Notes: generated by a model from the letters alone, not told the origin. A stretch of DNA of 64,000 nt from a virus (IMGVR_UViG_3300029913_000001); one strand, 5' to 3'; positions 20,091 through 45,595 are shown, counted from the stretch's first letter. Made by a program: numbers and translations.

Positions 20091-20321
20091 TTATTGTCCC
20101 AAAATATAGATTAATTTTTCATCTTTTGGAAGAACACGAATTATTTCACTTTCTATTATAATTCCCCCGTTATCGATGATGTATGCAGGCCCATTTCCAA
20201 GACTAGCTCTTCCTATCAGTATAGTTCGGTTAATCGGATACCCATTAGCCGAATATTCAACTAAATCATAAATATCGTACTTATAATCAAAATCAAAATT
20301 TCCTAAAACAGATTGTCGCAT
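20091..20321 (-). CDS. Small beta-barrel-like protein with conserved C-terminal helix
   Basis: Ends ESEIIRVLPKDEKLIYILGQ. Confidence 0.65.
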   Translation of the reverse strand: MRQSVLGNFDFDYKYDIYDLVEYSANGYPINRTILIGRASLGNGPAYIIDNGGIIIESEIIRVLPKDEKLIYILGQ

Positions 20322-20334
20322 CGCATATCCAATC

Positions 20335-20544
20335 TCATTGTCCCAAAATATAGATTAATTTTTCATCTTCTGTCAAATACCGAATTATTTCACTTTGCAG
20401 TACAACTGTTTGATGGTCAGTCCAATATGCCGATCTACTTAGATAGTATGTAGGTATCGTTAATTTAACAATATCCGACCAATCCCCATCTACATGACAT
20501 TTGACGTAATCGCCGACATGATACTTGAATATTTCATCGCTCAT
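20335..20544 (-). CDS. Small beta-barrel-like protein with conserved C-terminal helix
   Basis: FKYHVGDYV ... QSEIIRYLTEDEKLIYILGQ. Confidence 0.65.
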   Translation of the reverse strand: MSDEIFKYHVGDYVKCHVDGDWSDIVKLTIPTYYLSRSAYWTDHQTVVLQSEIIRYLTEDEKLIYILGQ

Positions 20545-20624
20545 GAAAATTATACCTGTTTCGTATATTATCCCTTGTTGAAACTATAGGGCGTCCAGAG
20601 AATTGAATATTTAATTCTAAAACT

Positions 20625-20701
20625 TGGTCGGAATGGTGGAATTCGAATCCACGTCGTCCTGTTCCCGAAACAGGTGCCTCAAACCACTAGGCTACATTCC
20701 G
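20625..20701 (-). tRNA. tRNA-Pro(CGG)
   Basis: CGGAATG/CATTCCG-A-CCA; TTCGGGA loop. Confidence 0.92.
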
Positions 20702-20776
20702 AAATAGCAAACTACTCGGGGTCGAATTTGGTTGGTTTTCCTTCCTTCGACAGTTTGCTGGGTAAACTTATTTTAT

Positions 20777-20852
20777 TGGCTACCAGAGAGGAACTCGAAT
20801 CCCCATCACCAGGATCAAAACCTAGGGTCCTAACCAATTGAACGATCTGGCA
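20777..20852 (-). tRNA. tRNA-Gln(UUG)
   Basis: TGCCAGA/TCTGGTA-G-CCA; TTTTGAT loop. Confidence 0.88.
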
Positions 20853-21392
20853 TCAAAATTTGTAATTCTTATAAATCTTCCAAAAATCAGCTCGATTTTC
20901 AGCAGGAATAACTTTTAATCCCAGTGCCGAAAAAACATCCTCTTCTGTTTCACTTGCTATAATATGGCCATCTTTGAAAAGACCATATTGATTCAACTTA
21001 TCGAAACCTTTATTCTTGCAATATGTTCGCATTGCAATATTGAACTGAGCATTGCCGGTAGCGTGAAGGCGCGCGGATCCAAAACTTTCCTTTGGCACGG
21101 TAATGAACTCAACTTGAATTTCCTTACCATAACACAATACCTTAAGGCTGAGTAAAGAACCGCCAGACCGATGTACTGCGCTAGGAAAAACGTCACCTAC
21201 GACATCGAGTAATTTGCTAATAGCGCAATCAGTTATTACAAAATCTAAATCTCCGATTTCAGTTTTTCCGCGCCGCCAAGAACCACAGATTTCGAAATTA
21301 ATATTTCGATCGGTTAACACATCTAGATAGGCTGAAATAATGCCATAGGCCTGAGATCGTGTAATTTTGTTTTCAACCGCAGTGCTAGACAT
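20853..21392 (-). CDS. Minimal family-X DNA polymerase (palm and thumb only)
   Basis: CGSWRRGKTEIGDLDFVIT; HATGNAQFNIAMR..KGF.KLNQYGLF; EEDVFSALGL..IPAENR. Confidence 0.88.
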   Translation of the reverse strand: MSSTAVENKITRSQAYGIISAYLDVLTDRNINFEICGSWRRGKTEIGDLDFVITDCAISKLLDVVGDVFPSAVHRSGGSLLSLKVLCYGKEIQVEFITVPKESFGSARLHATGNAQFNIAMRTYCKNKGFDKLNQYGLFKDGHIIASETEEDVFSALGLKVIPAENRADFWKIYKNYKF

Positions 21393-21430
21393 ATATCCAA
21401 TTTCGCTCTACTGAATTTAACAACAAATAT

Positions 21431-21459
21431 AGTATAGCAAAATTGGATATGAATGTCAA
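21431..21459 (-). promoter_or_regulatory. Sigma70-like promoter
   Basis: TTGACA-17-TATACT upstream of the PolX gene. Confidence 0.7.
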
Positions 21460-21495
21460 GAGAAATTAAACTCTTTGTTTTTAATAATCTAAAAA

Positions 21496-21576
21496 TGGCG
21501 GGACTGATGGGATTCGAACCCACGTTAAATAACTTAATCGACAATTAAGCGCCTTAAACCACTTGGCTACAGTCCC
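21496..21576 (-). tRNA. tRNA-Asp(GUC)
   Basis: GGGACTG/CAGTCCC-G-CCA; CTTAA-TTGTCGA-TTAAG. Confidence 0.88.
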
Positions 21577-21584
21577 ATTAAAAA

Positions 21585-21899
21585 TTATCGTCTGCCTCTT
21601 TTAATGCTGCGGGTAAAGCCATATCCACGTAACGATCTCGGTTTGGGACCGTAAGGATGCGGGCCACGCCACGCTCGCCATGGGCCAATTCCAATAAATA
21701 TTCCGCGTACAAACCACGCCGAATCGTAATATCCATATGGAGCGCAATCATACGGAGCATATGAATAATATCCCCATAGACAAACCGGTTCTTCTACGAC
21801 AGCAGGCTGTGGCTGTTGAACAATAACCTGTACTCCGGCCTGCCCCTCCGCCACTAAACTGCATAATATTAATGCTACTGCGAAAATTAAATTTTTCAT
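21585..21899 (-). CDS. Small secreted Pro/Tyr/Gly-rich protein (resembles an Acidobacteria family)
   Basis: Signal peptide MKNLIFAVALILCSLVAEG; PVCLWGYYSYAPYDCAPYGYY..WF..GIFIGIGPW. Confidence 0.7.
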   Translation of the reverse strand: MKNLIFAVALILCSLVAEGQAGVQVIVQQPQPAVVEEPVCLWGYYSYAPYDCAPYGYYDSAWFVRGIFIGIGPWRAWRGPHPYGPKPRSLRGYGFTRSIKRGRR

Positions 21900-22098
21900 T
21901 GCGTCCTTATTTATGTCGATTATTCTGAGGATGGGATCAAACCATCTCCGCCGGACTCCGCGCCCGGTGTTCAAACACTTTATTGGTTTCGAAAATCATA
22001 AGTGTCGCGACACTTTGATTATATCCTGCCAATTGGTCCTGGGATCTGTAACCGCGCAGCTACTCTTCACCCAATCTTTTAAACTACTCAGAAACTTT

Positions 22099-22620
22099 TT
22101 ATTTTTCTACTTGCTCCGCCAAGTTTTCTAATTCTTGTGCAATTGTCTGTTCGATAAATTTATTTAGAGTAATATCTTGTTCGTGAGCCATTAGCATAAT
22201 TGTATGTAATGTTTCTTTATCGAATTCTAAAGGAATTTCAACTCTTTCATCATAAGAAGTATGATTAACAATTGCCGTCAATTTGTCAAGAAAATCTGCG
22301 GTGGTTTCTAGTTCCGTAAAGTTTACGCCGTCGTATGCTTCATGACTATCGACGCCATACGCTTCATTTTCTTTTAAAAATTCGTCCAAATATTCAGGAT
22401 TAGACAATCGGTACGCATGACCAGTTGAATAATCAAAAACCTCCGCGGAAAAAACAACCTGGGTTACATTATCAAAAATAATTGATGCCTGCACACCATC
22501 GACTTCACCGTCCCAGTAATCTAATAAATAAGCGTTCTCACCGTAACAGCTCCAACCGTATTTTTCTCCGCTTGTAATCTGGTACTTAATTCCAACTAAC
22601 CATTCACTTAGAGTAATCAT
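22099..22620 (-). CDS. Hypothetical phage protein
   Basis: 173 aa; ends with an LMAHEQDITLNKFIE ribbon-helix-like motif. Confidence 0.7.
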   Translation of the reverse strand: MITLSEWLVGIKYQITSGEKYGWSCYGENAYLLDYWDGEVDGVQASIIFDNVTQVVFSAEVFDYSTGHAYRLSNPEYLDEFLKENEAYGVDSHEAYDGVNFTELETTADFLDKLTAIVNHTSYDERVEIPLEFDKETLHTIMLMAHEQDITLNKFIEQTIAQELENLAEQVEK

Positions 22621-22741
22621 TATTTTTCCTTTTAATGTGGGTTATCCTACATATAATTCGGTAGTACCCTGTATTCCTAGATGCTTGTGATGCAAGGATT
22701 TCGAAAATGCCTTTCATCACTCTTTTATTATAGCAACTATA

Positions 22742-23347
22742 TTATTGCCTGTCAAGAGATAAGTTATTAACGATATCGGAAAATTCTTGGAAGGAGTAAA
22801 CTCGAGTATACGGAACCTTAATCTTTTCATCGGCATCTTGATTCCATTCTCTATCGCGTAGAAATAAAACTGTATCCGTACTTTTTTCTGAAACCTCGAT
22901 CAAATTTTCTGGCCTATCATCAATTATTGCATCCAATCGTAATGCTCTTGCAATTTCGCCTTTTTGTTTTTCAACCAATACCGTGGGATATTTGATTCCG
23001 CAACACGATAACCATTTTGCGGTCTGAATTTCTATTGGGTCTCCCTCGGTTATTACCCGTGTAGTAATGAAATATAATCGATATTTCTTTGAAAATGCAG
23101 TCATATCAAAATTTAAGATATCCGAAAACGGCATATTATGTAAATAAAAATTTTTGGTGTTTGAAATCACATCCCATGCCTGCTTATGAATTTCCGGAGT
23201 TAAATTCCAATTTGATTGAAACCAATCTTTAACTTCGGCGGGCAATACCTTTCCAGTTAATTGTTCGCAAATCGTATGATAAGGTGTGGTGAAATCCGAT
23301 AATACTCCATCAATATCAATGCCTAATCGTAATCTAGTATCTTTCAT
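22742..23347 (-). CDS. HAD-family 5'(3')-deoxyribonucleotidase-like protein
   Basis: GIDIDGVLSDF, YFITTR, IIDDRPEN, RD.EWN. Confidence 0.85.
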   Translation of the reverse strand: MKDTRLRLGIDIDGVLSDFTTPYHTICEQLTGKVLPAEVKDWFQSNWNLTPEIHKQAWDVISNTKNFYLHNMPFSDILNFDMTAFSKKYRLYFITTRVITEGDPIEIQTAKWLSCCGIKYPTVLVEKQKGEIARALRLDAIIDDRPENLIEVSEKSTDTVLFLRDREWNQDADEKIKVPYTRVYSFQEFSDIVNNLSLDRQ

Positions 23348-23357
23348 CTAATCCTTT

Positions 23358-23434
23358 TGGTGTCGCCGATCTGATTTGAACAGATGGCATCTTCCATATG
23401 AGAGAAGCGTTCTACCGAGCTGAACTACGGCGAC
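23358..23434 (-). tRNA. tRNA-Met/Ile2(CAU)
   Basis: GTCGCCG/CGGCGAC-A-CCA; CTCATAT loop. Confidence 0.88.
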
Positions 23435-23751
23435 ACATATAATTTGTGAAGTTTAATAAGAACATCACCGTGACAGCGATGTCTAGGTCTGCAAAAGCAT
23501 CCTAAAATATCAGAATCTTTTAAACATGGTATTAATTCGAGTATCTGTATTCTTCTGATTTGTTCAACATGTGACCATTTTGGATTCCCCAATAACCATT
23601 CTTCATAGGCATCGACAGATTCATCAATGGATCCTACTTGTACAGACGCCTTTGTATTTTTAATCGGAAGATGGGTGAATGGATTGCCGTAAATGCTACC
23701 ACGCCCAATATAAATTGTGAATGGCTCGAATCTTTTATCTACAACTTGCAT
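23425..23751 (-). CDS. DUF4326-like protein
   Basis: IYIGRGSIYGNPF ... LGCFCRP..CHGDVL. Confidence 0.85.
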   Translation of the reverse strand: MQVVDKRFEPFTIYIGRGSIYGNPFTHLPIKNTKASVQVGSIDESVDAYEEWLLGNPKWSHVEQIRRIQILELIPCLKDSDILGCFCRPRHRCHGDVLIKLHKLYVSP

Positions 23752-23769
23752 AACTATCCCTAGTTAATT

Positions 23770-23840
23770 TGGTTGCGGGGCTGGGAATTGAACCCAGAAG
23801 GCCGAGTTTATGAGGCTGGCCGGCAACCTCGCTCCCCGCA
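23770..23840 (-). tRNA. tRNA-Met(CAU), atypical or degenerate (reduced D-arm)
   Basis: TGCGGGG/CCCCGCA-A-CCA; CTCATAA loop; weak anticodon stem. Confidence 0.6.
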
Positions 23841-24070
23841 GTGGTATTTATAATTATCTGGAACGCTATAATAAACTCTAATCACGGTCCTTCGGCAATC
23901 AGTTAGCTAATGAACGACGCGTGCATATTGATAATTCTATGAGATCGATTAATCGCTATAAACTAGGCAGCTTTAGGAAAATAATTAAACGTAAAACATG
24001 GGTAATAATCGTCATAATTATCGGTACCTAGTGTTAGCCAAACATGCCCATCCGAAACGTCAACTAAATT

Positions 24071-24289
24071 TTATCCAGAGAAATCGTAATTATCTTCGAT
24101 TTTAACTCTAGCAAAAGGAATCGCATAAAAGATAAGGCCCACAGGATCTTCAACAATTGCGACATCGTGCATCATACTACGATATCCATCTGATTCATCT
24201 TCAACAGCTTCGAACACCGTCCCGTTTAATTTAAATCTATTGCAGTCAACGCCATAAAAATCTGCTTCTTGTCCAACTTCAAATTTCAT
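24071..24289 (-). CDS. Hypothetical protein
   Basis: 72 aa; VEDESDGYRSM motif. Confidence 0.55.
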   Translation of the reverse strand: MKFEVGQEADFYGVDCNRFKLNGTVFEAVEDESDGYRSMMHDVAIVEDPVGLIFYAIPFARVKIEDNYDFSG

Positions 24290-24363
24290 AATTACTAGAC
24301 CTCTTCAATGCGATCGTTTTAAAGTATGAGAGCATGACTACATTAGCCGTACTCTACGAATTA

Positions 24364-24449
24364 TGGCGGATGGTTGAGAAATCGAATCCCCTTCCTTTCG
24401 GAAGCCTCCTGCTTTCAAAACAGGCTGAACACCTTGTTCGGAACCATCC
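24364..24449 (-). tRNA. tRNA-Ser(UGA)
   Basis: GGATGGT/ACCATCC-G-CCA; TTTGAAA loop; long variable arm. Confidence 0.88.
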
Positions 24450-24452
24450 TTC

Positions 24453-24540
24453 TGGCGGCTAGCAGACCACTCGAAGGCCAATCCTTGTGAGATCGCAGTG
24501 CTTTCCAAGCACGCTCGGAATCCTATCCAATTTACTAGCC
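24453..24540 (-). tRNA. tRNA-Ser(GGA)
   Basis: GGCTAG/CTAGCC-G-CCA; TTGGAAA loop; long variable arm. Confidence 0.75.
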
Positions 24541-24770
24541 CCTAGTTAAACCCACAGGTAATCTAGGCAAAATTCAACAGCAAACTTATTTTTCAATCTT
24601 CATCAACTGATGCTTCTTTGTATCACAATCACCATTACGATGCATTTCTTCAAATTGTTTTCGATTCTTTGCCCACCATTGTTTCCAATCTGAAGTTCTT
24701 TTATTGTTGAGCAAGGGGAGTAGATGCTTACAATTATTGCACCAAAATTTCATATGACTCCTTAAAATTT

Positions 24771-24861
24771 TGCGCTTATCCGGTGCGGACCCGGCTTCTC
24801 TCTTTTAACAATCACATGCATATGACCAACAAAGTGTCCTAAACCCGTTAGACGATCGCGC
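24771..24861 (-). pseudogene. Degenerate Asp/Glu-type tRNA with an extended hairpin replacing the anticodon loop
   Basis: GCGCGAT-CGTCTAACGGGTTTAGGAC-A-CTTT..GGTCATAT-GC-ATGTGATT..AAAG; decayed T-loop. Confidence 0.5.
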
Positions 24862-25364
24862 AAATTTCATTAATTTTTCTTTCACATTGTATTAATAGCA
24901 TTTATTAAAAATATTGCCGTTCCTATTTCGGGCGAAATTTTAATATCTGTTAAATCAATTGTTTTAACGACCTTATCACCGGTATCAAATTCTTTTGAAA
25001 TAATAATACCAATAGCCTTATTATTTTTACGAATAATTTGCTCGATATTATATTTCATTAATCTTTCTTTCGATCCTTAAACTGTTTAAAGCAATCTTCA
25101 AAATTCTTATCCGAAGAATATCCTATTCCAAATAATGTAATCGTAAACAGCGTCTTAGCATGTTGATATAGCGCTGCCATTGGATCAATTTTTTTTGCCT
25201 TTTGCAATGCAACTTCAAATTTCATTCTACCCCTTATTAGTTCTTTCGATTTGTAAAAATATATTTAATTGCATTAACCAACGTTTTGATTCCACCAATA
25301 AACCCTGGTTGCGGGGCTTCGATTGGGTTTTGCTCATTAATTGGATTCTGTTTTTGTGCCATAT

Positions 25365-25577
25365 TTACTCCGTTAATCTAAAAATTAATTGCTCACCGGT
25401 CGTAAGTTCTCGAATAATTTCACTTTCAAGAATAATTTCAATATGCGTGGGTTGAATAACATACGCCAGCCGGCCTACTCAAAGGCTGCGACCGGTAATT
25501 CTAGCGACGTGTGTCTGACCGCCGTCGCCAAACGAATATTCGACATAAGAACCAACTTCGTATTTATAGATTCCCAT
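25365..25577 (-). pseudogene. Third tandem copy of the C-terminal-helix family, with an in-frame TGA
   Basis: MGIYKYEVGSYVEY...RSL*VGRLAY...ESEIIRELTTGEQLIFRLTE; TGA at 25479-25481. Confidence 0.75.
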
Positions 25578-25588
25578 TGAATCCTTTC

Positions 25589-25819
25589 TTATTCGGCTAA
25601 CCTTAAAATTAGAGCTTCATCTTTTGTTAACTCACGAATAATTTCGTCTTCAAAAACATAATCTCGATTAGACATGTGGTAACCAGGCAAGCTAGGCAAG
25701 CCTTCATTCCACACTTCAGAATATACAATTAACGATGTGCGTATCGAATTAACCGCGACGCCCAGTTCGTCGTTCATTTGGTATTCAACATATGCGCCAA
25801 TTTCATATTTGTTTTTCAT
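25589..25819 (-). CDS. Small beta-barrel-like protein with conserved C-terminal helix
   Basis: KYEIGAYVEY ... EDEIIRELTKDEALILRLAE. Confidence 0.7.
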   Translation of the reverse strand: MKNKYEIGAYVEYQMNDELGVAVNSIRTSLIVYSEVWNEGLPSLPGYHMSNRDYVFEDEIIRELTKDEALILRLAE

Positions 25820-26040
25820 TCGGCTAGTCGATTAATTAAAACTTCAACCGGAGTTAACTCACGAATTATTTCGCTTTCTAAAAGTATGTTTCCCATTTCG
25901 CTAGGCGTGATATAATATGCCGGCGACTCAGCCCAATCAGTGAGTCCCCAAATTGATACTATCCGAGATGCCGGAGCATCGACATTTTTGTAATCGAATA
26001 AATATTCAATATATGCGCCGATTTCATATTTCCATTTCAT
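25816..26040 (-). CDS. Small beta-barrel-like protein with conserved C-terminal helix
   Basis: KYEIGAYIEY ... ESEIIRELTPVEVLINRLAE. Confidence 0.7.
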   Translation of the reverse strand: MKWKYEIGAYIEYLFDYKNVDAPASRIVSIWGLTDWAESPAYYITPSEMGNILLESEIIRELTPVEVLINRLAE

Positions 26041-26064
26041 AGCGCCCCTTCGTTTGAAAAAAAA

Positions 26065-26141
26065 TGGTAGGCGAGGTCGGGTTCGAACCGACGACCTTTC
26101 GATTATAAATCGAAGGCTCTATCCAACTGAGCTACTCGCCT
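26065..26141 (-). tRNA. tRNA-Ile(UAU)
   Basis: AGGCGAG/CTCGCCT-A-CCA; TTCGA-TTTATAA-TCGAA. Confidence 0.92.
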
Positions 26142-26145
26142 ACAT

Positions 26146-26691
26146 TTAAATGATGGTGTGATTTAATTTTTGATTAGGAATATGGTATTCACTCCTAAGA
26201 AGTCGTATAATACTTTCTGAATCATCGAATTTAATCCATTCACCATTTTCGATATTTACATTAAATTTATTTAATAATGCATTTTCAACTTTTCGTCTAT
26301 CTAAAACAAATTCATAATGCTTAACTTTATATTGTTTAAATGGATCGCAAGTTTGATATGCGAGAAGTCTCTTATTTAAATCCATCGTCATACCAATTTT
26401 TAAATGATCTGGCCATATTGGATTCCAAATTAAATAAACAATGCCTTCTTTACAAGTTTTAACATCGCCACCGCGCGAAATTAACAGTTTTAAAAATTCT
26501 AGCCCTCCCATTTTTCTTGCATAATTTTTACTGAATTTATTATTATGCTTGGGCCGACAGTCTCCATAAATCTCGATATATGCCTGCATAATATTTTCAT
26601 TAAGAGAAAATAAACCTTTTTCAGGAATAATACGGTTATTTATCATTATATCAAATGTTTGCTTAATTCTTGATAATTTATCTTGATTCAT
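26146..26691 (-). CDS. T5orf172/MUG113-type GIY-YIG nuclease
   Basis: GIVYLIWNP.WP..LKIGMT.DL.KRL..YQT.DP...VE..L...GEW. Confidence 0.8.
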   Translation of the reverse strand: MNQDKLSRIKQTFDIMINNRIIPEKGLFSLNENIMQAYIEIYGDCRPKHNNKFSKNYARKMGGLEFLKLLISRGGDVKTCKEGIVYLIWNPIWPDHLKIGMTMDLNKRLLAYQTCDPFKQYKVKHYEFVLDRRKVENALLNKFNVNIENGEWIKFDDSESIIRLLRSEYHIPNQKLNHTII

Positions 26692-26718
26692 TTTCCTATT
26701 CTTTAATTATATAACTTT

Positions 26719-26855
26719 TGGTGGGTCCAGCGGGACTTGAACCCGCCACCAACCGGTTACCCGTGTCCATTCGGTAAACGCCCTCGCCAGATTCGAACTG
26801 GCATCATTCCTTTAAGGACCAAAGCCGGTTGCTCTACCAGATGAGCTATAGACCC
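26719..26855 (-). tRNA. tRNA-Lys(UUU) interrupted by a 61-nt insert (26760-26820) in the anticodon
   Basis: Removing 26760-26820 restores a canonical 76-nt cloverleaf: GGGTCTA/TGGACCC-A-CCA and ACCGG-CTTTTAA-CCGGT. Confidence 0.85.
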
Positions 26856-26866
26856 ATAAAAATTTT

Positions 26867-26942
26867 TGGTGCGCCCACCGAGACTCGAACTCGGATTGAT
26901 CGGGTAAGAGCCGAATATTCTAATCCATTGAATTATAGGCGC
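26867..26942 (-). tRNA. tRNA-Lys(CUU)
   Basis: GCGCCTA/TGGGCGC-A-CCA; CTCTTAC loop. Confidence 0.88.
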
Positions 26943-26963
26943 ACTATTTTAATATCGTTAGCC

Positions 26964-27050
26964 TACAGGCCCATCTGCTAAGCAGACCGCACGGGTAGCG
27001 TGGCTCCGAGGTAACCGTCGCCAGTTATTGTTCCACGGACTTTTCCTGTA
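26964..27050 (-). ncRNA. Unassigned structured RNA
   Basis: Closing TACAGG/CCTGTA; internal TCTGCT/AGCAGA and CACG/CGTG; GC-rich island in an AT-rich spacer. Confidence 0.4.
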
Positions 27051-27077
27051 TGTTTCGTTCGCGTGTGCTATTAAACT

Positions 27078-27150
27078 TTGTCAGAGTGAGTCTCGACCTC
27101 ACAACCTACTGAGTACAATCTCAGCGCTCTACCATTTGAGCTATCTGACT
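27078..27150 (-). pseudogene. Degenerate tRNA (6-nt anticodon loop ATTGTA, no CCA)
   Basis: GTCAGA/TCTGAC; GCTC-AAATGGTA-GAGC; CTGAG/CTCAG; GTGAG/CTCAC. Confidence 0.55.
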
Positions 27151-27290
27151 GTCCGGCGCTTTCAACCGGAACCACTCCACCTTTTAAGGAGTGTTTGACT
27201 TTAAATTTGCTGGTCCCTAACACGGTACCAATCCAGGTAGTATCCGGATTAACTCCGGTCTACCCACTGCCGTCATGCTCGGCCCACAAA
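27151..27290 (-). ncRNA. Unassigned hairpin-rich RNA
   Basis: Stems GGTAG-CCGGA/TCCGG-CTACC, TGGT/ACCA, CACTCC/GGAGTG and TCCGG/CCGGA. Confidence 0.35.
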
Positions 27291-27340
27291 TTAATTAAAT
27301 ATTACTATTAAATGACAAATCGAAACTGTCCGATCTTAAA

Positions 27341-27419
27341 GATGCCCGATGGCCAGTAGCTCGAATCCTGCTCAGCCGGGTAAGAGCCGACTGCATCTAA
27401 CCATCAATGCTTACCGCCC
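27341..27419 (-). pseudogene. Pseudo tRNA-Lys(CUU), 3' acceptor strand lost
   Basis: GGGCGGTAAGCATTGATGGTTAGATGC-A-GTCGG-CTCTTAC-CCGGC; no strand complementary to GGGCGGT. Confidence 0.55.
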
Positions 27420-28009: not shown

Positions 28010-28015
28010 AATCTT

Positions 28016-30678: not shown

Positions 30679-30717
30679 CACTGAAATAATTATAGCAAAG
30701 TTCGATACCGAATGCAA
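30679..30717 (-). promoter_or_regulatory. Conserved early promoter, copy 1
   Basis: TTGCAT-17-TATAAT with the core TTTGCTATAATTATTTCAGTG. Confidence 0.85.
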
Positions 30718-32802: not shown

Positions 32803-33039
32803 TCATTGCCCCAACCTAAAAATTTCGTCATTGGAAAGTTTTCGAACAGTCCGCAAAAATCGAAAAATCCTAAGGACATTGCCATCTTCAGACACATTAA
32901 TGTAAACTATCGTTTCGGCTGGATCATATGGATCATGATAATCAATCTTACTCACAATTCCAATATTAATTGAATCGAGTAGACCCCACATTGTATCAAA
33001 TTCAACATGATCCCCGGTCTTAATTTTTACGGTTTGCAT
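32803..33039 (-). CDS. Small beta-barrel-like protein with C-terminal helix
   Basis: IKTGDHVEF ... RKLSNDEIFRLGQ. Confidence 0.6.
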   Translation of the reverse strand: MQTVKIKTGDHVEFDTMWGLLDSINIGIVSKIDYHDPYDPAETIVYINVSEDGNVLRIFRFLRTVRKLSNDEIFRLGQ

Positions 33040-36265: not shown

Positions 36266-36502
36266 TTATTGTTCCAGCCGGTGTACTAATTCTTTCTCAA
36301 TGAAATCTAATGCCCACAACCAGGCAAAATATTCGGCTTGGACTCCATTTTTATCCCATCGAGTATCGACCATACGCCGGTTGTCGGCATAAATAAATCC
36401 ATCCGAAAAATAAGCCTTTGGATAAGATTGCAACACGATATACTTATTTTTTTCTAATGCGGGAGTAAGCCACGAATTTAGAAAAGATTTATCAAATTTC
36501 AT
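36266..36502 (-). CDS. 'YPxA...AW' family protein
   Basis: IVLQSYPKA ... FAWLWALDFIEKELVHRLEQ. Confidence 0.6.
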   Translation of the reverse strand: MKFDKSFLNSWLTPALEKNKYIVLQSYPKAYFSDGFIYADNRRMVDTRWDKNGVQAEYFAWLWALDFIEKELVHRLEQ

Positions 36503-37698: not shown

Positions 37699-37799
37699 CT
37701 AGGCGGGCCTTAGGAACATACTCAACCCCATCGATAACAACTTGTTTCATCGTTTCTCCTGATATAACAGTAACAACAGTTGAGTGAATTAACGATAAT

Positions 37800-38045
37800 C
37801 TATCTTGCTAGTTTATCGAGTAATTTCTCATCGAAATATTCACGCCATTTACCAACTCGCCATTTACACGGCAAAATAACATTATAGATGTGATTCATAA
37901 TATATTCAGGTTTACTACAATCGATTACCTCTGCCACTCCGATGTGCATGATAACTTTTCCAAATCGCGTAACAATAATTTCGCTATTGTCATCGGAAAA
38001 ATCCCAGTCGTATTCATTTTCGATTGGCATTTTATACTTGCCCAT
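37800..38045 (-). CDS. Hypothetical protein
   Basis: 81 aa; ends EKLLDKLAR. Confidence 0.5.
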   Translation of the reverse strand: MGKYKMPIENEYDWDFSDDNSEIIVTRFGKVIMHIGVAEVIDCSKPEYIMNHIYNVILPCKWRVGKWREYFDEKLLDKLAR

Positions 38046-39036
38046 ATAGATGATTCTTTAACATTTTGAAAAGAATCTGATGTTCCTTTTCGAACATATC
38101 CTCTGTTACTGCTTCGATCGGGAAAAATCGTGTAGTACTAATATCGTCGCCGCCGGTAGTCTCGAGACTACCTACTTCGCCGAGAAAGAAAATGGTTTTA
38201 ATCGTTTCGGAACTATCTCTATATCGCCAATCGTCAATCTGGGTACTTCCAATATATTCTAATTTTCCGGGAGTGGTAAGCGTTTCTTCCATACTTTCCA
38301 TAGTAGCATCAGATTCATAGCTAACATTTTGCGGGCGTAGTTTGCCCATCGCATGACCACCGGGAAATCTATATCCCTTTTCATCACTCCGCTTCGCTAA
38401 CAACAGTTGAATATCATCTTCAACATTCAACGATACACGCTCTCCTGAAGCTACTCGGAAATCTGGATTCTTAATCTTACTACGATGAATAATTGCTACA
38501 TCAACGGTTGGAATAACTCGATCAAACGTGTTTCTTGTTGCGTAAATAACTCCAGCTCTGAATTCGGGACTATCCAATGCTTCGTTGGCCGCTACATTTC
38601 GAAGAGTGGTACCGGAAATTGTCTGATCTACCGGCATCGTCAATTCAACAACCTTACGACGGCCAGAATAAGATTTCAAGAAACTATCGCGACTTCCATA
38701 CAAAGTGGCCTTGCCGTACGGCACCCTCTCTGTAATTAGTCGATCAAGATCCTGGCTCCATAATTCATCTGTCTTCCGATTATGAATCGGATAAACTTCA
38801 TAATTAGGATATGCTGCATGAATCATTTTTCGCCTAGTATCAAAATCAAGCGGATCATTTTTTGTCGGTGCTATTCCAACCGGCAGGCAGCCTAGGAAAA
38901 CGATGACCCGTGGATGAATTCTACCTACTGCATCGAGTAATGCTCGATGACCCTCGTGCAATTCTGGTAATTGAAACCTAGCAACCAAAACACCATAATC
39001 GGGCTGTGTGATATTACTCATTGTTCTTCCTTTCAC
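38032..39036 (-). CDS. nadM: Bifunctional NMN adenylyltransferase / Nudix hydrolase (NadM-Nudix type)
   Basis: VARFQLPELHEGH (HxGH), GSRDSF, SGTTLR, then a Nudix region FPGG...EE and GGDD. Confidence 0.9.
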   Translation of the reverse strand: MKGRTMSNITQPDYGVLVARFQLPELHEGHRALLDAVGRIHPRVIVFLGCLPVGIAPTKNDPLDFDTRRKMIHAAYPNYEVYPIHNRKTDELWSQDLDRLITERVPYGKATLYGSRDSFLKSYSGRRKVVELTMPVDQTISGTTLRNVAANEALDSPEFRAGVIYATRNTFDRVIPTVDVAIIHRSKIKNPDFRVASGERVSLNVEDDIQLLLAKRSDEKGYRFPGGHAMGKLRPQNVSYESDATMESMEETLTTPGKLEYIGSTQIDDWRYRDSSETIKTIFFLGEVGSLETTGGDDISTTRFFPIEAVTEDMFEKEHQILFKMLKNHLYGQV

Positions 39037-39307
39037 TGTCGGTTAAATAATTTTCATATTTTCCATTGTTAGCGTAATATGCGTCCCATGATTCTTTGGA
39101 AATTTGAGTGGTATATGAAGATCCACGTCGCTTTTCCGAAAGAAGTGATCGCCGCTTTTCCCAATAATTAGCACGTAGCACAATAGCAAAAATGAAAATA
39201 GTTAAAAAAGCCAAATACCAATAAAAATTACGATAAACGAAAAACAGTTGAACCGCCAACAGGCAAAATTCTACCGTTAGTACTGTCCAAATAAATTTAC
39301 GCATCAT
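39014..39307 (-). CDS. Small membrane protein
   Basis: Two TM segments. Confidence 0.55.
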   Translation of the reverse strand: MMRKFIWTVLTVEFCLLAVQLFFVYRNFYWYLAFLTIFIFAIVLRANYWEKRRSLLSEKRRGSSYTTQISKESWDAYYANNGKYENYLTDSERKNNE

Positions 39308-39746
39308 TTTCTCTTTCTTGCAACTCTTTTCGAATTGCCATCAAAATTTTTCCAAGATGATTTTTACCGACACCCTTGCAAACGCCCCAAAATGTATCAC
39401 CCCAGGTATTACCCTCGATAAGAATTGCATCTTCGGTCGCCAACAATTTTTGTCTTAATTCCGAATTCGTAAACTTTTGGCAAAGCAAATCAACCATTAC
39501 ATTAAGTTTAACGTCATTCCAATCGGATCGGAGGGTAGTCAGCCGCCCTAATCTTTTTGCTTTACCGGGAGTAGTTGCGTCCCGTATTTCGATCCGTTGA
39601 TCTAAATTAAAGGTTTTGCTCGCCTGATATGCGCGTTCAACATCTCGGTACCGAAAATTATCATCTTCGAGCCGAATGCCGCCGGGTACATAAGAAAAAT
39701 TACTTAAAAACTCAAACTCCCCGACAAATTTATCAATAATTTTCAT
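39297..39746 (-). CDS. NADAR (YbiA-like) protein
   Basis: FLSNF, VERAYQASK, AKRLGR, LRSDW, KF...L...LL.T, IEGNTWGDTFWG, G.NHLGKILM. Confidence 0.93.
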   Translation of the reverse strand: MKIIDKFVGEFEFLSNFSYVPGGIRLEDDNFRYRDVERAYQASKTFNLDQRIEIRDATTPGKAKRLGRLTTLRSDWNDVKLNVMVDLLCQKFTNSELRQKLLATEDAILIEGNTWGDTFWGVCKGVGKNHLGKILMAIRKELQERENDA

Positions 39747-39787
39747 TACTCTTTTATTATAATACTCGCAGTGAGAATAGTCAACAG

Positions 39788-40000
39788 TTAAATATGCAAA
39801 TCAATTTTAATATTATCGCCATCCTTATATTTTGCGAAAAATAGGCAAGGAAGCCATGCAACAACAATAATAAAAAAAATTACTGCCGGACCAAGATTCG
39901 GATATTTTGTAATTGTCGGGCCACTGACGGAACCGAAGTGAAAAACCATCCCAGCCAAGATTAAGCCAAAGACAATATAAACCAAAAAAATAATTCCCAT
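39788..40000 (-). CDS. Small two-TM membrane protein
   Basis: Hydrophobic segments. Confidence 0.55.
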   Translation of the reverse strand: MGIIFLVYIVFGLILAGMVFHFGSVSGPTITKYPNLGPAVIFFIIVVAWLPCLFFAKYKDGDNIKIDLHI

Positions 40001-40008
40001 AAATCCTT

Positions 40009-40635
40009 TTATTCCGATGCTATTCGGATTTTAAGTTCGGTAATGTAACGTGAAATATTTGTTCTAGCCGCTCGCTCCCAAATTGCACGAGTCTCTGAGC
40101 ACCAGAAAATACAAGGTACCGATAAAAATTTGTTCATTATTGCCATTTGCCCGGCATAAAAATCCTTATCAGTCATCCAGGCAAATTCTTTTCGAATATT
40201 CGAATTATTTTTCAAAAACGTTGTGTACGGGGCAGCCAACGAGCTGAGATCCAGATCAATAAAGAAATTTAAATCCTTGTTAAATCCTGTGTAAAATTCG
40301 TCGTACGATTTATGATTTAAATGGTCGGCAGTACCCGAAATCATCAGGCTAATGATCTCGGCATCGGACTTCGATGTAAAATTCTGGTAGCGGTTGAACA
40401 ACTGAACACTATCTTCAACACTGAAATGATCTGGACGATAATTCCCATTATCAACAGTTTGATAAACTGCATCATGCCAAAAAATTGCGTGCATAATTAA
40501 ATCTGACCGTGTACAGATGCCGGAAAAAATATCTAATTTTGTTAACATATCCTTAACATGACGCCAGCTATGATAGTAACGCAATTCATACCCGGACAAT
40601 GCCGACCAGAATCCATCAAGATAATCGGCCTGCAT
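40009..40635 (-). CDS. HD-superfamily phosphohydrolase (COG4339-like)
   Basis: RYYHSWRH, FWHDAVY, FIDLDLSSL, IRKEF. Confidence 0.85.
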   Translation of the reverse strand: MQADYLDGFWSALSGYELRYYHSWRHVKDMLTKLDIFSGICTRSDLIMHAIFWHDAVYQTVDNGNYRPDHFSVEDSVQLFNRYQNFTSKSDAEIISLMISGTADHLNHKSYDEFYTGFNKDLNFFIDLDLSSLAAPYTTFLKNNSNIRKEFAWMTDKDFYAGQMAIMNKFLSVPCIFWCSETRAIWERAARTNISRYITELKIRIASE

Positions 40636-40667
40636 AAGACTCTTATATTTTTAAATTCATTCCACTC

Positions 40668-40916
40668 CTATTGGTGCGGCACCATATTTATAATAATTGC
40701 CGGCCAGCACAAAACAATTACTAATAAAAGCGCAGCGGATAGTATCGACCTATCAGAGTTGGTTTTGCTCATTAATTCATCCAGCATTTGATTGATACTA
40801 TCCCATTGCAAATGCAGTAAATATCCTGCGATTAAAAAACCAGTTAGAAAATAAAATAAAAGAAAAAACATTATTTCTCCAATCCGTAAAACTTTTTCAA
40901 CCAAGGAAGAATCCAT
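40668..40916 (-). CDS. Small membrane protein
   Basis: Two TM segments; the start overlaps the upstream gene. Confidence 0.5.
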   Translation of the reverse strand: MDSSLVEKVLRIGEIMFFLLFYFLTGFLIAGYLLHLQWDSINQMLDELMSKTNSDRSILSAALLLVIVLCWPAIIINMVPHQ

Positions 40917-41851
40917 TCTTCATATTCTTTTCGTAGTTCGACAGTCAATGCCGGTAACTTTGATTCTAGTGAAAGTGTCTTTAATGTATCTACCCCAACT
41001 AAAATCTGCTCACGAATTTTTTCAATAGGATGCTCTCCACGACGAATAGATTTTAAATACTCAGCGTAATCTGATGTGTACGGATATTTAAGTTTCTTTC
41101 CAGACAATAAATCAATGCCCTCATTAACGATCCTTAAAGCATGGGAAACTGCCTTCCAATCGGCGGTAGACTGCGCAGCATCTTTTGCTCGAGTTCCAAA
41201 TTTTGCGACTTGAACATTTACAATATCAAGATTAGTTTCAAATGCGCTCGAATACGGTAAAATCTTTTCCAATAATTTAATACACGGCCGCATATTTTGG
41301 CCGGCCGAATCAATAGCATAATCGGTTATTGAAAAATATTTCGGATAATCTTTTTCAATTTCTACGGCAAGTTCCTCAAATTCAGCTTGATGATCTACAA
41401 TACGATGCAATTTTGGAAATCTTTTAAATAAATCTCTAGCGTCCAGGGCCGCATTTAATCGGTCACCTTTATCAGAATACACTTGGGCCTGGTTGACCGC
41501 ATATCCTACCATTGATTTAATATTAGCCGTCAAAAATTTATCGTGTAATTCGGTGCAAAACAATGGAAATCTTCCATCGTATATCGCCTGCTCACCGTCA
41601 ACACACTCAACCGATGCAGCTAGCTCTAGCGCATATGTCTGCCCCTCCATAAAATCTCTTGCAAAAACCTGTAGAGGAACATTTTCACAATCGATATCGT
41701 TAATAACGGGCCTGGTATTTTTAATCGACTTACCAAGCAACAAGGAATCTAACTCAGGAAGTACAATGTATTTCATATCCCTATCCGATTCGGGTGTAGA
41801 AGTTCCATAAAGTTGTGATCCGTATAGACAAGAAAATAAAATCTTTTGCAT
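40871..41851 (-). CDS. Pol-beta-superfamily nucleotidyltransferase (RlaP / T4 NrdC.11-like)
   Basis: GSQLYGTSTPESDRD; DWKAVSHALR; LKSIRRG. Confidence 0.85.
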   Translation of the reverse strand: MQKILFSCLYGSQLYGTSTPESDRDMKYIVLPELDSLLLGKSIKNTRPVINDIDCENVPLQVFARDFMEGQTYALELAASVECVDGEQAIYDGRFPLFCTELHDKFLTANIKSMVGYAVNQAQVYSDKGDRLNAALDARDLFKRFPKLHRIVDHQAEFEELAVEIEKDYPKYFSITDYAIDSAGQNMRPCIKLLEKILPYSSAFETNLDIVNVQVAKFGTRAKDAAQSTADWKAVSHALRIVNEGIDLLSGKKLKYPYTSDYAEYLKSIRRGEHPIEKIREQILVGVDTLKTLSLESKLPALTVELRKEYEEWILPWLKKFYGLEK

Positions 41852-42558
41852 ATTATATTCCTTTCAATGCGATAATTTCCAAACAAGTGCCTCGTTGTAC
41901 GATATTTTAAAAAGTTTGATTCCCGCAACGTTATATACGTAAGTATTTCCGGAACGAACAGTCATTTTAAACATCAGATTGCCGCTGTTATCAACCTCAA
42001 CTATTCTTCCAAGAAATTCTTCCCCAGTGTAGCTCCTATAAATTGCCCAATCACCCAACTCAAAAATATGTTCGTCGCGTTTAGCCATATCATTTTTCCA
42101 AGTAATGAATTAAAATTTTATCTATGGTTGCTTTTTCAACCCACCGCAGGCTTACAGAAGTCCTATAAGATACTCCTAAAATTTCGGCTGTTTCAAAAAT
42201 AATAGACTCCGAGAATCCTAAATCATCACCGAGGTATATTCCCAAATATCGGTTACCCGACATTCCGGTATAAAAAATAGCGTCCCCCGGATTTAATTCA
42301 TCACCTGTCTTAGTGTAAATCATTTCGATAACCGATGAAGTAAAATCTTATCGGTGGGAACAATCACACATTTTTCGGTAACCATAATTCCGCCGTAGGC
42401 CCCACCCTCTTCAGTAACGAGTACTATTTTCTTTGGACGAATTTCAGATATTTGTAACAATATAAGAGTTTGCCCCTTATAGCCAGGTGTAAGAATCCAA
42501 TCTCCTACTTTAAATTCATCACCGAAAAAATCTACCATTATTGCTCCAATTTATAAAT

Positions 42559-42888
42559 CTAATATCCCGAAATAACACCAGATTGCACCTCTAGATACCA
42601 TGCACCAAAATCGTGATCTTTATTAAGAATATCTTGTTCAGCTTCTGCGTCAAATAATACCTTAGCCTTACTAAGGTATTCATACATCTTCTTCTCATCG
42701 CATTCTTGAAGCATATCAAAATTATGCTGAAATGCTAGGTAATGTCCGATAAGATTCTTTTGCAAGACGAGCTTAATTTCATGCTCGGTTAATTCACGGT
42801 ATTTTAGAACGCGCTTAAGAGTTTCGAGTAACGGATAAAAAGTATTGCCAAAGTCATTATCGCCTAATACAATTGCAATTGTTCTCAT
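42559..42888 (-). CDS. Hypothetical protein
   Basis: 109 aa; GDNDFGNTF motif. Confidence 0.6.
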   Translation of the reverse strand: MRTIAIVLGDNDFGNTFYPLLETLKRVLKYRELTEHEIKLVLQKNLIGHYLAFQHNFDMLQECDEKKMYEYLSKAKVLFDAEAEQDILNKDHDFGAWYLEVQSGVISGY

Positions 42889-43100
42889 ATTATCTCCGTC
42901 GTTATTATTCCTCTAGCCGATAAATTAGTGCTTCCGCATCAGTTAATTTTGTTATTATTTCATCCCGTAAACTACACCAGCCAAGGTATTCTGGAAATCG
43001 AATAAGAAAACAATCACGCCGGTAATCGACTACCGAAATAACTATTCCTATTTCGCTAGGCAGTTCATTGAGTCCTTGAACCCGAACATAATCACCAATG

Positions 43101-43310
43101 TTAAACATTATCTTCAAAATGGAGCCGGTCAGTCAACCTCTTAATACCGGCGGTATATCTAATTACATCTGCAGAATATTTTGCATAATTATCAGCTGCA
43201 ATACTCCACTCAATATCCGTCAAATTTTCGCCTTTGATACATGCAGAATAATAGGCTTTTTGCATTTCGACATATTTTAATTTCTGTGCCAACGTAGCAA
43301 TTGCTCTCAT
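43101..43310 (-). CDS. Hypothetical protein
   Basis: 69 aa; its upstream region duplicates that of 42559..42888 (cattatctccgtcgttatt). Confidence 0.5.
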   Translation of the reverse strand: MRAIATLAQKLKYVEMQKAYYSACIKGENLTDIEWSIAADNYAKYSADVIRYTAGIKRLTDRLHFEDNV

Positions 43311-44359
43311 ATTATCTCCGTCGTTATTGCCCGAGTCGCCAAATCAATGCTTCATCATCGGTTAATTTTCTTAATGCTTCCACCACTATTATGTCATAAT
43401 AATCAAAACTATAATAAATTATAGCATACATTCGTCCGCCATATTCATCCTGCCGAAAACGATTTATTTGGCCAACCGTAGTATTTTTAAAAGTATCGAT
43501 AAATTCTACAAAATCATTAACCCGAAGTTCAATTCCATTTTTATCACATATCATATCGATAACTGGTAGATGAAAAGATCATCCGGTGTTAACTTAACAA
43601 GCGACTGAGAATACCAGATATAATTTTCATCCTTAATCTCATATAAATTACAATAGGCAGCGCCAGTGCCATTATCTTTTCCAATAAATTTAACTTTTTT
43701 CGGTAAAATACCAAAAATCGAAACTACCGAAAAGACATAAACCCAGTCGCCTACCGAAAATTTAACGCCATTTCGATCGTGCATTACAACCCCAGTCGAT
43801 AAATTAGCATTTCATCCGGCGAGACCTTCATCAGATCCAAAGGTGACCAGGGAAACTTCGATCCATTTTCATTCTCTAAGATTGCAAGTTCAGGAAAAAA
43901 TTCATTTGCTGCAGGTTTAAAAGAGACAACCTTTCTTGGTAAAAATTGATGCTGCCGTGAAAACGAAACAGAGCATACCCAATCACCAATTTTCAGTGGC
44001 GTATTTAACCGATCGCAAAAAGTAGTTGTAATCTTATTTGTCATTGACTCAACTTCCAAATTAAAAATTCAGCGGGTGAACACCCATGGAACTTCCGACC
44101 GTATTTCATGTTGCAATACATTTCGTACCCGGAAAGAGGAGCATTCGTCCAAGACGAGGAAATATCTTTTCTATTAATCCTCTTTTCGACTCCGATATAA
44201 CTGCCATCAACTAATTCACGAGAGAGCTCGTACGCAATGGCCTTGGCTCGTCGACGAGTACGTGTGAACCCTCGATAATCCAGCCAACGGCCATCTTTGT
44301 CGCACTCAAAAATACTCCACTTTCCGATAATTGCCCAGCTAGGCCGTCTCATTATTTCC

Positions 44360-44773
44360 TCACAGTTTAATTTCTACCGGGTGGCCAAATTCGTTATAAA
44401 ATCGTACACGACGAACACCAGAAAGTTTAATCAAATCCATACAATGCTTGCACGGCCGAGAACATCCAGGTCGTTCGGCGGTTTTACGCGAATTCATATT
44501 CGTGCGAGAAATATATAGAATCAAATTATTCGGCCGATCATAATGAAATCTACGAACAAGTGCCATCATTTCAGCGTGAACATTTCCATTATAGGTTGAA
44601 GAGGACGAACGAGGGGTCGTTTTACCCCAAATATTGTGGCCGACTGAAAGCAAATTCGAACCAGCGTAAAGAGCTGCTCCCAACTGATAACCTACCTGCG
44701 GGCCGTTACTCAACAAACTCGCAGCTTTTGCTGCATCGAAACCTCTTTGCCAACTACCAGACAATGACGGCAT
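44360..44773 (-). CDS. Cytidine/dCMP-deaminase-like zinc protein
   Basis: HAEMMAL ... SRPCKHC. Confidence 0.85.
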   Translation of the reverse strand: MPSLSGSWQRGFDAAKAASLLSNGPQVGYQLGAALYAGSNLLSVGHNIWGKTTPRSSSSTYNGNVHAEMMALVRRFHYDRPNNLILYISRTNMNSRKTAERPGCSRPCKHCMDLIKLSGVRRVRFYNEFGHPVEIKL

Positions 44774-44789
44774 TCAACCCTTTCTACAG

Positions 44790-45023
44790 TTACGAATTCG
44801 TTTGATCCTTCACCGCGGCCAAAATAGCATGGGCCAGCGCAGTCGCCATTTCTGTACTAAGATTAAAATCGACCGGTCCCCAAAAACCTCGAGACGCATC
44901 ATCTGGCGTACAAATACGAATAGTATTGAGACTATCGCAATCCGGTACAACTTGAAAATGGGCACCGTCTGCACAGATATCTTCGGAATAAATGTTACGT
45001 ACTACTTCAATTTCTACCGGCAT
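44790..45023 (-). CDS. Hypothetical protein
   Basis: 77 aa ORF. Confidence 0.55.
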   Translation of the reverse strand: MPVEIEVVRNIYSEDICADGAHFQVVPDCDSLNTIRICTPDDASRGFWGPVDFNLSTEMATALAHAILAAVKDQTNS

Positions 45024-45245
45024 ACTCGATCTCCCTTATCGTCAATTCCAAATTTTGTTTTCAACTTTTCACATTCGATATCGCCAAATTGTCGGCGATA
45101 TGTAGCCAAAATGTATCGAGTTTTCATCTTTTGAAACTTGATCCTACACGAAAGCACAAACCATTTTATCCTATAATTATAGAATTAATCCTATAATAGG
45201 CAATCAGCACCCGAAGTGTGAATTTTTCAATCACTGTGTTCTCCT

Positions 45246-45284
45246 CACTGAAATAATTATAGCAAATCCCCCGGGGGAAGTCAA
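45246..45284 (-). promoter_or_regulatory. Conserved early promoter, copy 2
   Basis: TTGACT-17-TATAAT with the identical 21-bp core. Confidence 0.85.
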
Positions 45285-45340
45285 CCGAAATAAGTCCTTT
45301 AAAATCAGCAAAGTTAAGTCCTTTGTTTTCAAGGCACAAA

Positions 45341-45595
45341 TTAATAGGATAATTGGATGAGTAACGCATCGTTTTCGGTTATTTTTTCAATATTTTTAGA
45401 GGATCGACTTTTCATTACAAAATCTATATTAGGAGAATCTAAAACGGCAATTTCATTTTCTCCATAATAATCATACGCAGCGGTGAAACGAATATTCTCA
45501 ACATCCAATATTTTTCCTATTCGAATCGATGCACCCGGCGAATTATATTTAACCCAATCACCCTTGACAATTAAATTACCGAATTTATCCGTCAT
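45341..45595 (-). CDS. Small beta-barrel-like protein with C-terminal helix
   Basis: DKFGNLIVKGDWVKY ... KITENDALLIQLSY. Confidence 0.6.
   Translation of the reverse strand: MTDKFGNLIVKGDWVKYNSPGASIRIGKILDVENIRFTAAYDYYGENEIAVLDSPNIDFVMKSRSSKNIEKITENDALLIQLSY

Follow-up and report, generated by a model that had tools for sequence, protein, structure and literature searches.

A shared C-terminal helix on small proteins of an uncultured peat jumbo phage: a predicted fold element at recombining gene ends

Introduction

The N-terminal capsid-targeting sequence of phage T4, the C-terminal ClpX-binding tail of SspB and the cargo peptides of encapsulins and microcompartments are short terminal peptides, flexible or attached through a linker, each with a demonstrated receptor; that of T4 stands at the N-terminus and is cleaved off. 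Here we describe a short C-terminal ending shared by small proteins that are encoded in a 64,000-nucleotide (nt) stretch of viral DNA (IMGVR_UViG_3300029913_000001; the whole stretch is called the window), with most attention to positions 20,091 to 45,595. A preliminary description had read this ending as a docking or targeting tag, constant on otherwise variable recognition domains. Its likeness to the peptides above is one of concept only, in that one short terminal peptide recurs on different bodies, and it differs from them in being predicted to lie inside a packed helix.

For the largest group of carriers, which we call the barrel family, the closest described structures are Tudor, chromo-barrel (Tudor-knot, MRG15/MSL3), PWWP and KOW domains, which share a five-stranded barrel and a short 3-10 turn before the last strand (VIA Z 7.2-8.6). 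Chromo-barrel, PWWP and extended Tudor domains also have a helix that follows the last strand and packs against the barrel. These domains differ from the phage proteins in sequence (11-19% identity) and in belonging mostly to eukaryotic chromatin and transcription proteins, and the shared fold says nothing about the function of the barrel family. Pfam DUF7205 (PF23835), a set of small tailed-phage proteins, resembles the family in size (~70-80 amino acids, aa), phage origin and predicted shape, end-helix included; a literature search found no paper naming it.

A third comparison concerns gene exchange. In T4-type phages, short conserved border sequences of small accessory genes, the PeSL (promoter early stem-loop) cassettes, act in hyperplastic regions as exchange points between sequences that are unrelated apart from them (Arbiol et al. 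2010, PMC2839356; Comeau et al. 2014, PMC4122927). PeSLs themselves are intergenic promoter and terminator elements conserved as DNA. The block that is replaced between the window and a sister contig, described below, likewise has both of its joints in short conserved sequences. The element here differs from a PeSL in being coding and conserved as a peptide, with synonymous sites near random, and in that most of its genes abut or overlap their neighbours without an intergenic spacer.

Results

Thirteen intact genes of the window, together with one copy broken by a TGA, encode proteins of 70-90 residues that end in K-L-(T/S)-x-(D/E)-E-A-L-I-Y-R-L-x-x-stop. They lie in tandem arrays at about 20.1-20.5, 25.4-26.0, 32.8 and 41.9-45.6 kb, all on the minus strand, as do the other window genes given by coordinates below, each of which we name by its lower coordinate. 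Profile searches covered all open reading frames (ORFs) of at least 30 residues on both strands. They found the 13 full-length members, and the translations contain every C-terminus that had been listed earlier, at the gene to which it had been assigned. Because a profile of the bodies without their tails, made from 17 foreign sequences only, picks up all but one of the 13 members (12, at E 2e-9 to 5e-3) along with the truncated copy, and because column conservation is as strong in the N-terminal h-G-D-(W/Y)-V-x-Y block as in the tail, the bodies are best seen as diverged copies of one domain. Judged from their sequences, then, the 13 proteins are one paralogous family. The x-G-D-(W/Y)-V start recorded in the preliminary description is real and conserved as strongly as the tail; its phrase "variable recognition domains" went too far.

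The family is not confined to this phage. A profile search of 1.84 billion representative sequences with the window alignment returned 35 proteins at E<=1e-3, among them about 20 proteins of 65-86 residues from other metagenomes with identical layout. Arrays of two to seven copies recur in other soil-phage contigs; one 2.4-kb soil-metagenome contig (L022:36-2420) is almost wholly an array of seven such genes with very diverged bodies. The conserved aromatic residues are those of the G-D-(W/Y)-V block, one mid-protein Tyr (25/30) and the tail Tyr/Trp. Six long, repetitive, beta-rich proteins from the profile searches (P0009, P0018, P0026, P0027, P0046 and P0047) were set aside as uninformative, and clustering of the bodies by BLASTP proved too insensitive for defining families. 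A loose end-anchored tail pattern occurs in 20 of 211 minus-strand ORFs versus none of 217 on the plus strand; this regular expression was written after the data had been seen and was not used as a test.

The family member P0001 (43324-43554, 76 aa, tail LTDDEALIWRLGQ), found by the profiles, was modelled with AlphaFold2 from a 35-row alignment, with a predicted local distance difference test score (pLDDT) of 94.5 and a predicted template modelling score (pTM) of 0.81. The model has strands at residues 15-19, 25-35, 42-49 and 52-57, a short one at 62-63 and, besides a 3-10 turn, a helix at 66-75; the model that the ESM Atlas itself provides for this protein has a pTM of 0.79. Tudor domains are the best solved matches in VIA (Z 8.6, root-mean-square deviation (rmsd) 2.0 Å, 58 aligned residues), and in the VIA rows for PWWP, BAH, extended Tudor and the MRG15 chromo-barrel the aligned range reaches residues 75-76, into the helix. 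Foldseek gives probability 1.00 and template modelling (TM) scores of 0.55-0.69, with Tudor domains at 0.6-0.69, at weak E-values of ~1e-2. The barrel proteins are thus predicted to be compact, Tudor/chromo-barrel-like five-stranded beta-barrels closed by a ten-residue alpha-helix, and the SH3/KOW-like barrel suggested earlier takes the form of an SH3/Tudor-like barrel in the model. The tail-helix block, at a pLDDT of ~91, lies within the single compact domain. As modelled, the tail of these 13 proteins is an element of the fold and not a tag on unrelated domains. The preliminary description had named such an outcome, a helix that is simply a core element of one fold, as one that would speak against its tag reading; for the barrel family it is largely what the models give. 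A homodimer prediction of P0001 with the family alignment scored 0.00 and, having been run without controls, carries no weight either way.

By predicted fold only, DUF7205 is the nearest named neighbour of the barrel family. Its models match 43324 with Atlas TM scores of 0.80 and 0.77 over 69 residues at an rmsd of 1.4 Å, spanning residues 1-76, both sides of the comparison being predicted; against the Atlas's own model of 43324 the TM score is 0.78. Precomputed DUF7205 matches exist for a chimeric family member on the sister contig (L013:1203-1454; unmarked) and for two array members of the soil-phage contig L020 (marked weak), and the first was not reproduced on rerun. The DUF7205 Pfam model gave no match at E<=1 among 10 window members and, among the 35 aligned members, one at E 0.068, far below the curated cut-off. 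A Pfam search yielded no family name for the barrel proteins, and a PHROGs search yielded weak matches only (best E 6e-4), to families without assigned function. Many unnamed small phage proteins have the same predicted shape. Because the conserved blocks are separated by highly diverged surfaces, and because SH3/Tudor-like proteins are a common type of phage accessory protein, the barrel proteins are most likely small binders, each with a different host or phage target.

The tail itself begins with K-L, which forms the last strand, and passes through (T/S)-x-(D/E)-E, a capping box of the form S/T-x-x-E, into the amphipathic helix A-L-I-Y-R-L; two polar residues complete it. It has an acidic first turn, a hydrophobic face of L, I and L at i/i+1/i+4, a basic last turn and a small C-cap residue. 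An S/T N-cap, an acidic first turn, a basic last turn and a small or Gly C-cap are textbook features of helix stability, and the make-up of the tail is that to be expected of a self-stabilised amphipathic helix. Since K-h-(T/S)-x-E-E, without L-I-Y-R-L, follows every barrel unit of the multi-repeat relatives P0021, P0034 and P0038, the first half of the tail belongs to the barrel fold at large, whereas its second half is special to the stand-alone family. In the 136-residue P0020, a two-unit fusion, the first tail has become internal.

The first array holds 20091-20321 (76 aa, tail LPKDEKLIYILGQ; full profile E 2e-19, foreign-only full profile E 7e-10) and 20335-20544 (69 aa, LTEDEKLIYILGQ), the second found by the profiles and sharing with the first an 81-nt direct repeat that spans the tail. 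In the next array the interrupted copy, 25365-25577, came to light through a direct-repeat search, as part of repeat family D1; the body profile matches its first 32 aa, and in translation its tail, LTTGEQLIFRLTE, is still readable. A single in-frame TGA stands where the intact relative P0024 has Trp, and the remaining frame, tail included, is open, so the copy is a nonsense allele or else a pseudogene of recent origin. It is followed by 25589-25819 (76 aa, LTKDEALILRLAE) and 25816-26040 (74 aa, LTPVEVLINRLAE), and 32803-33039 (78 aa) has a tail two residues shorter, LSNDEIFRLGQ; the profiles identify all three. The last array contains 41864-42088 (74 aa, ISYNEALVWKLSH), 42905-43117 (67-70 aa, LTDAEALIYRLEE), 43551-43784 (77 aa, LTPDDLFIYQLSI), 43784-44059 (86-91 aa, VSPDEMLIYRLGL) and 45341-45595 (84 aa, ITENDALLIQLSY), likewise assigned by profiles, in addition to the modelled 43324. 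Also in it are 42320-42538 (72 aa, VPTDKILLHRLSK; foreign body-only profile E 1.9e-9) and the most divergent member, 42090-42323 (77 aa, ATIDKILIHYLEK), which is found by the full profile and, over its C-terminal part only, by the foreign-only profile at E 0.053.

The last seven to nine residues of the tail, L-I-x-R/K-L-S/E/G/A-x-COOH, also end small proteins outside the family. A nine-residue end matrix was built from the barrel family alone, and the C-termini of 106 other minus-strand genes were scored against their internal 9-mers, with a p-value floor of ~1e-4; the gene sets of the window and of the controls are simple greedy ORF calls. Seven of the 106 non-family genes score at p<=0.005 versus 0.53 expected, and four of them (44041, 36266, 37800 and 5172) at p<=5e-4 versus ~0.05 expected. 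Two control phage stretches under the same calling and scoring, 105 genes of the T4-like Vibrio phage XZ1, which is rich in small genes, and 46 genes of the Xanthomonas phage RTH11, gave 0/151 at p<=0.005. On this evidence the ending is shared by several unrelated small proteins of the phage. The earlier proposal that the helix occurs on unrelated domains holds for the YPxA family, 44041, 37800 and genes beyond the window; it does not extend to the 13 barrels, which are one family.

Gene 44041 (44041-44352, 103 aa) had been singled out earlier as an unrelated body with the same tail, and this is borne out. It carries a full 13-residue tail, CSPAEFLIWKLSQ (end-matrix score 17.9, p ~1e-4), on a body without detectable family similarity; hhalign aligns it to the family over its last 20 residues only (84-103; probability 41%). 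Its Atlas model is poor (pTM 0.43), with alpha/beta structural neighbours. The tail resembles that of the downstream neighbour 43784 and is a candidate graft. The 81-aa protein of 37800-38045 ends in FDEKLLDKLAR (score 8.4-8.5, p 1e-4 to 2.5e-4), has no detected similarity to either family and gave no match to the barrel body profile.

Four of the seven end-matrix matches in the window belong to the YPxA family, whose similar ends had been noted earlier; four of its five window members fall in the top 0.3% of internal 9-mers with the matrix derived from the barrel family only. They were assigned by alignment as 4679-4885 (68 aa, end LKLISRLNN, p 0.001-0.0015), 5172-5462 (96 aa, EKLQMILAE), 19160-19351 (63 aa, RAVLARLAK, p 0.002) and 16975-17175 (66 aa, with a weaker end, DKMFVNKISS, p 0.011); the fifth, 36266-36502 (78 aa, EKELVHRLEQ, p ~2e-4), was modelled. 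In its AlphaFold2 model (pLDDT 80.9), helix 5-26, three strands and helix 54-77 follow one another, and the ending forms the terminus of the 24-residue second helix. The predicted fold, alpha-beta3-alpha, is clearly not a barrel. Its topology, alpha1-beta1-beta2-beta3-alpha2, is like that of a double-stranded RNA-binding domain, a weak resemblance (best Z 6.0, Atlas TM ~0.5) within a range of common arrangements. In both models, 43324 and 36266, the ending is predicted to lie within a helix (pLDDT ~88-91) of a single compact domain, and not to be exposed or flexible as a tag would be. Searches with a tail profile reached 44041 (E 0.035-0.1); the 17-column tail profile missed the YPxA family (E 2.2), which only the end-anchored nine-residue matrix picked up. 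Seven YPxA members have been seen in all, L006:7670-7921 and L018:6212-6526 among them, and all carry the ending; several directly adjoin transfer RNA (tRNA) genes, and a word-based protein search found no YPxA relative outside this phage lineage.

The ending continues beyond the window. Along overlapping contigs that reach ~30 kb past the window's end, at least five further small genes carry it, including the YPxA member at L006:7670-7921 (end RELIWKLSE), a 95-residue protein with a new body at L011:3317-3604 (end VLIFRLSE) and four consecutive small genes on the opposite strand at L018:5465-6526, each of these four at p<=3e-4.

It is possible that similar amphipathic helices arose independently at the C-termini of the barrel family, of the YPxA family and of each singleton, with no grafting and no partner. 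Such convergence would be in keeping with the general rules of helix stability, which all of the conserved features follow, and with the tail DNA of the different families, which is without recent identity. A generally favoured ending would, however, be expected in other phages, yet none of the 151 control genes has it, those of the T4-like stretch included. The full 13-residue tail of 44041, so like its neighbour's, and the joints seen directly inside tail DNA (below) also argue against independent origins, which we consider improbable.

What is conserved in the tail is the peptide. Over all pairs, codons for the same amino acid are identical in the tails at a rate of 0.41-0.47 versus 0.37-0.39 expected from codon usage, and the Leu, Ile and Arg residues are written with many different codons across the copies. 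Because synonymous sites in the tail are thus close to random, selection, as read from the codons, acts on the peptide and not on the DNA. General gene conversion was rejected as the cause of tail similarity for the window overall, codon identity being near expectation. An exception is the pair 20091/20335, in which the last 30 coding nt are identical (30/30) on diverged bodies and for which gene conversion is likely. Some gene conversion is also possible among the tails of L022, where codon identity reaches 0.62.

These codon data bear on a further alternative, namely that a DNA or mRNA signal at gene 3' ends (a Shine-Dalgarno sequence, promoter or recombination site) is what is constrained and the peptide is its by-product. 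Many tail genes do abut or overlap the next start (ATGA, TAATG), some tails have GG-rich codons 8-10 nt before the next ATG, and tail DNA has served as a recombination joint at least once. Against this stand the varied Leu, Ile and Arg codons and the near-expected codon identity, several tail genes that are followed by a separate ribosome-binding site or by no close gene, and the foreign homologues that keep the peptide on different DNA. The variability of the codons led us to reject a ribosome-binding site or promoter embedded in the tail as its cause, and a nucleic-acid signal of any kind is very improbable.

Comparison with the sister contig L013, which is 95-96% identical to the window apart from one replaced block, places recombination joints at the conserved ends of the genes. 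The left joint of the block lies at window position 43977, just after the G-D-W-V codons of 43784, and L013:1203-1454 encodes a chimera of 43784 whose first 27 residues are the same and whose remainder derives from a different family member. The right joint lies inside a tail. L013 has an intact family gene, P0017, whose end, ALIYKLEQ-stop, immediately precedes the orthologue of 42320. Of that tail the window retains no more than the last 21 nt, in the same place and identical in DNA, as an orphan remnant of six codons at 42541-42558 (I-Y-K-L-E-Q) followed by a TAA. The remnant is in frame with 42559-42888, an unrelated gene of 109 aa whose TAG stop, at 42559-42561, it directly follows, and the ATG of 42320-42538 comes directly after it. 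As the sequence reads, one stop codon separates 42559-42888 from gaining the ending. At L013:1423-2262 a cassette of the array has been swapped: the window genes from 43551 through 42559 are replaced there by a gene of 261-279 aa with a weak match to radical S-adenosylmethionine proteins.

A second trace comes from an allele of 25816 in another sample, P0003, which differs at 1/61 body residues versus 5/13 tail residues. This contrast (Fisher p ~3e-4, a hand estimate that was not computed by a tool) suggests that a patch was exchanged within the tail alone. Taken together, the sequence comparisons show gene ends in the arrays to be recombination joints, and the joints in tail DNA, the orphan remnant and the P0003 chimera make in-frame grafts of the ending plausible. 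A 32-nt direct repeat, 97% identical, is also present behind the family members 42905 and 43324 (42875-42906 and 43297-43328); it takes in the stop and the spacer, then the ribosome-binding site and the opening codons (M-R-A/T-I-A) of two downstream genes that are otherwise unalike.

The window derives from an uncultured jumbo phage of peat with a genome of ~293 kb. Peat and bog metagenome sequencing runs contain the stretch, and its proteins recur on metagenome contigs of up to 292,778 bases. No cultured phage is close: its Nampt is at most ~40% identical, and near-identical DNA was not found in the INPHARED phage collection. A tblastn search of INPHARED with P0017 gave no match at E<=1, and a search of IMG/VR for relatives found none. 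The window has a G+C content of 36-44% and nearly every gene on the minus strand, with 29 tRNA genes, an NAD-salvage module, a ribonucleotide reductase, a ligase and many small ORFs; a tRNA-like gene detected by ARAGORN within the tRNA array (27078-27150, minus strand) has an undetermined two-base anticodon. Metatranscriptome contigs from two peat runs lie on 44405-45082, with one touching 41800-41876, and leave the barrel-family genes uncovered.

The 14-mer TATAATTATTTCAG has six exact copies in the window versus 0.14 expected, at 30681-30694, 45248-45261, 62383-62396, 62620-62633 and 62974-62987 on the minus strand and at 49668-49681 on the plus strand. Because it lies upstream of gene blocks, contains a TATAAT box and has a ribosome-binding site within ~20 nt downstream, it probably represents a promoter consensus of the phage itself. 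The gene block from 45023 to 41864 is headed by the copy at 45248. In one peat run the bin 45206-45336 has a summed contig depth of 128 with several loose ends.

Discussion

The ending that recurs at the C-termini of these small phage proteins could be a structural end-helix, self-stabilised and spread between small genes by recombination. We prefer this reading, while giving it about an even chance of being right, because it accounts for the confident packing of the helix, the agreement of its make-up with helix rules, the scars of recombination and the lack of the ending in the control phages. The barrel family grew by tandem duplication and by recombination between copies at two conserved motifs, a recombination that is shown for one allele pair. 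In-frame recombination within or beside the tail-coding DNA may then have carried the ending to unrelated small proteins, and such events may have left their traces in the orphan remnant (42541-42558) and in P0003, the allele with an exchanged tail. Once there, the ending would have been retained as a self-sufficient, well-capped end-helix, whose L/I/L face would pack on a small domain and leave a polar C-terminus.

Several observations weigh against a structural helix spread by grafting. The conserved Leu stands at a fixed distance from the stop codon in 27/30 sequences, R/K at position -4 is near-invariant on unrelated folds, and the tails of L022 are very uniform on diverged bodies, with DEVLIYKLE-x in 5/7 and single changes in the other two. 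These three points are not obviously explained by a purely structural role and would fit a common partner better. The traces of grafting consist of one orphan remnant and of allele chimeras within the family, and YPxA tail DNA is no nearer to the barrel-family tails than amino-acid identity and codon bias predict. The controls comprise two phage stretches only. Finally, we infer the burial of the L/I/L face from pLDDT, pTM, aligned ranges and helical periodicity.

A common partner is the essence of the docking tag proposed in the preliminary description. The end-helix would bind one phage or host unfoldase or protease, chaperone or scaffold, and the bodies would be adaptors, cargo or substrates of timed degradation. 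The recurrence of the ending above chance on at least two modelled folds and several singletons, with none in the two control phages, speaks for such a tag, as do its fixed position relative to the C-terminus, the retention of the peptide for long enough that synonymous sites have become near-random, and the greater uniformity of tails than of bodies within L022. Both models, however, put the ending within a helix whose packing is predicted with confidence. What the different folds have in common is mainly the i/i+1/i+4 hydrophobic face and the helix caps, which structure alone would explain, whereas position -5, which is likely exposed, is not conserved outside the barrel family, and the fusion P0020 keeps its tail internally. 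We regard a shared docking tag as a real but minority possibility. In a more ambitious form, which we hold to be doubtful, the helix would operate phage-wide and bring dozens of small early proteins of different folds to one hub, such as an unfoldase or some other machine of phage or host.

Much of the coding space that is still unknown in large phages consists of small accessory genes, and one family of them can here be defined by its sequence, fold and array structure. Its best-conserved piece is both an element of the fold and the piece that moves between genes. If the ending is a structural helix that has been grafted from gene to gene, it would offer a clear natural case in which phage genes have exchanged a single secondary-structure element in frame and the scar of the recombination can still be seen. 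If instead it docks on a common partner, it would open a way to learn how dozens of small effectors are organised in a giant phage, with the tail peptide as bait for the hub. Such a hub may use the small proteins as interchangeable adaptors or clear them on schedule, and recombination in tail DNA would plug new bodies into the system.

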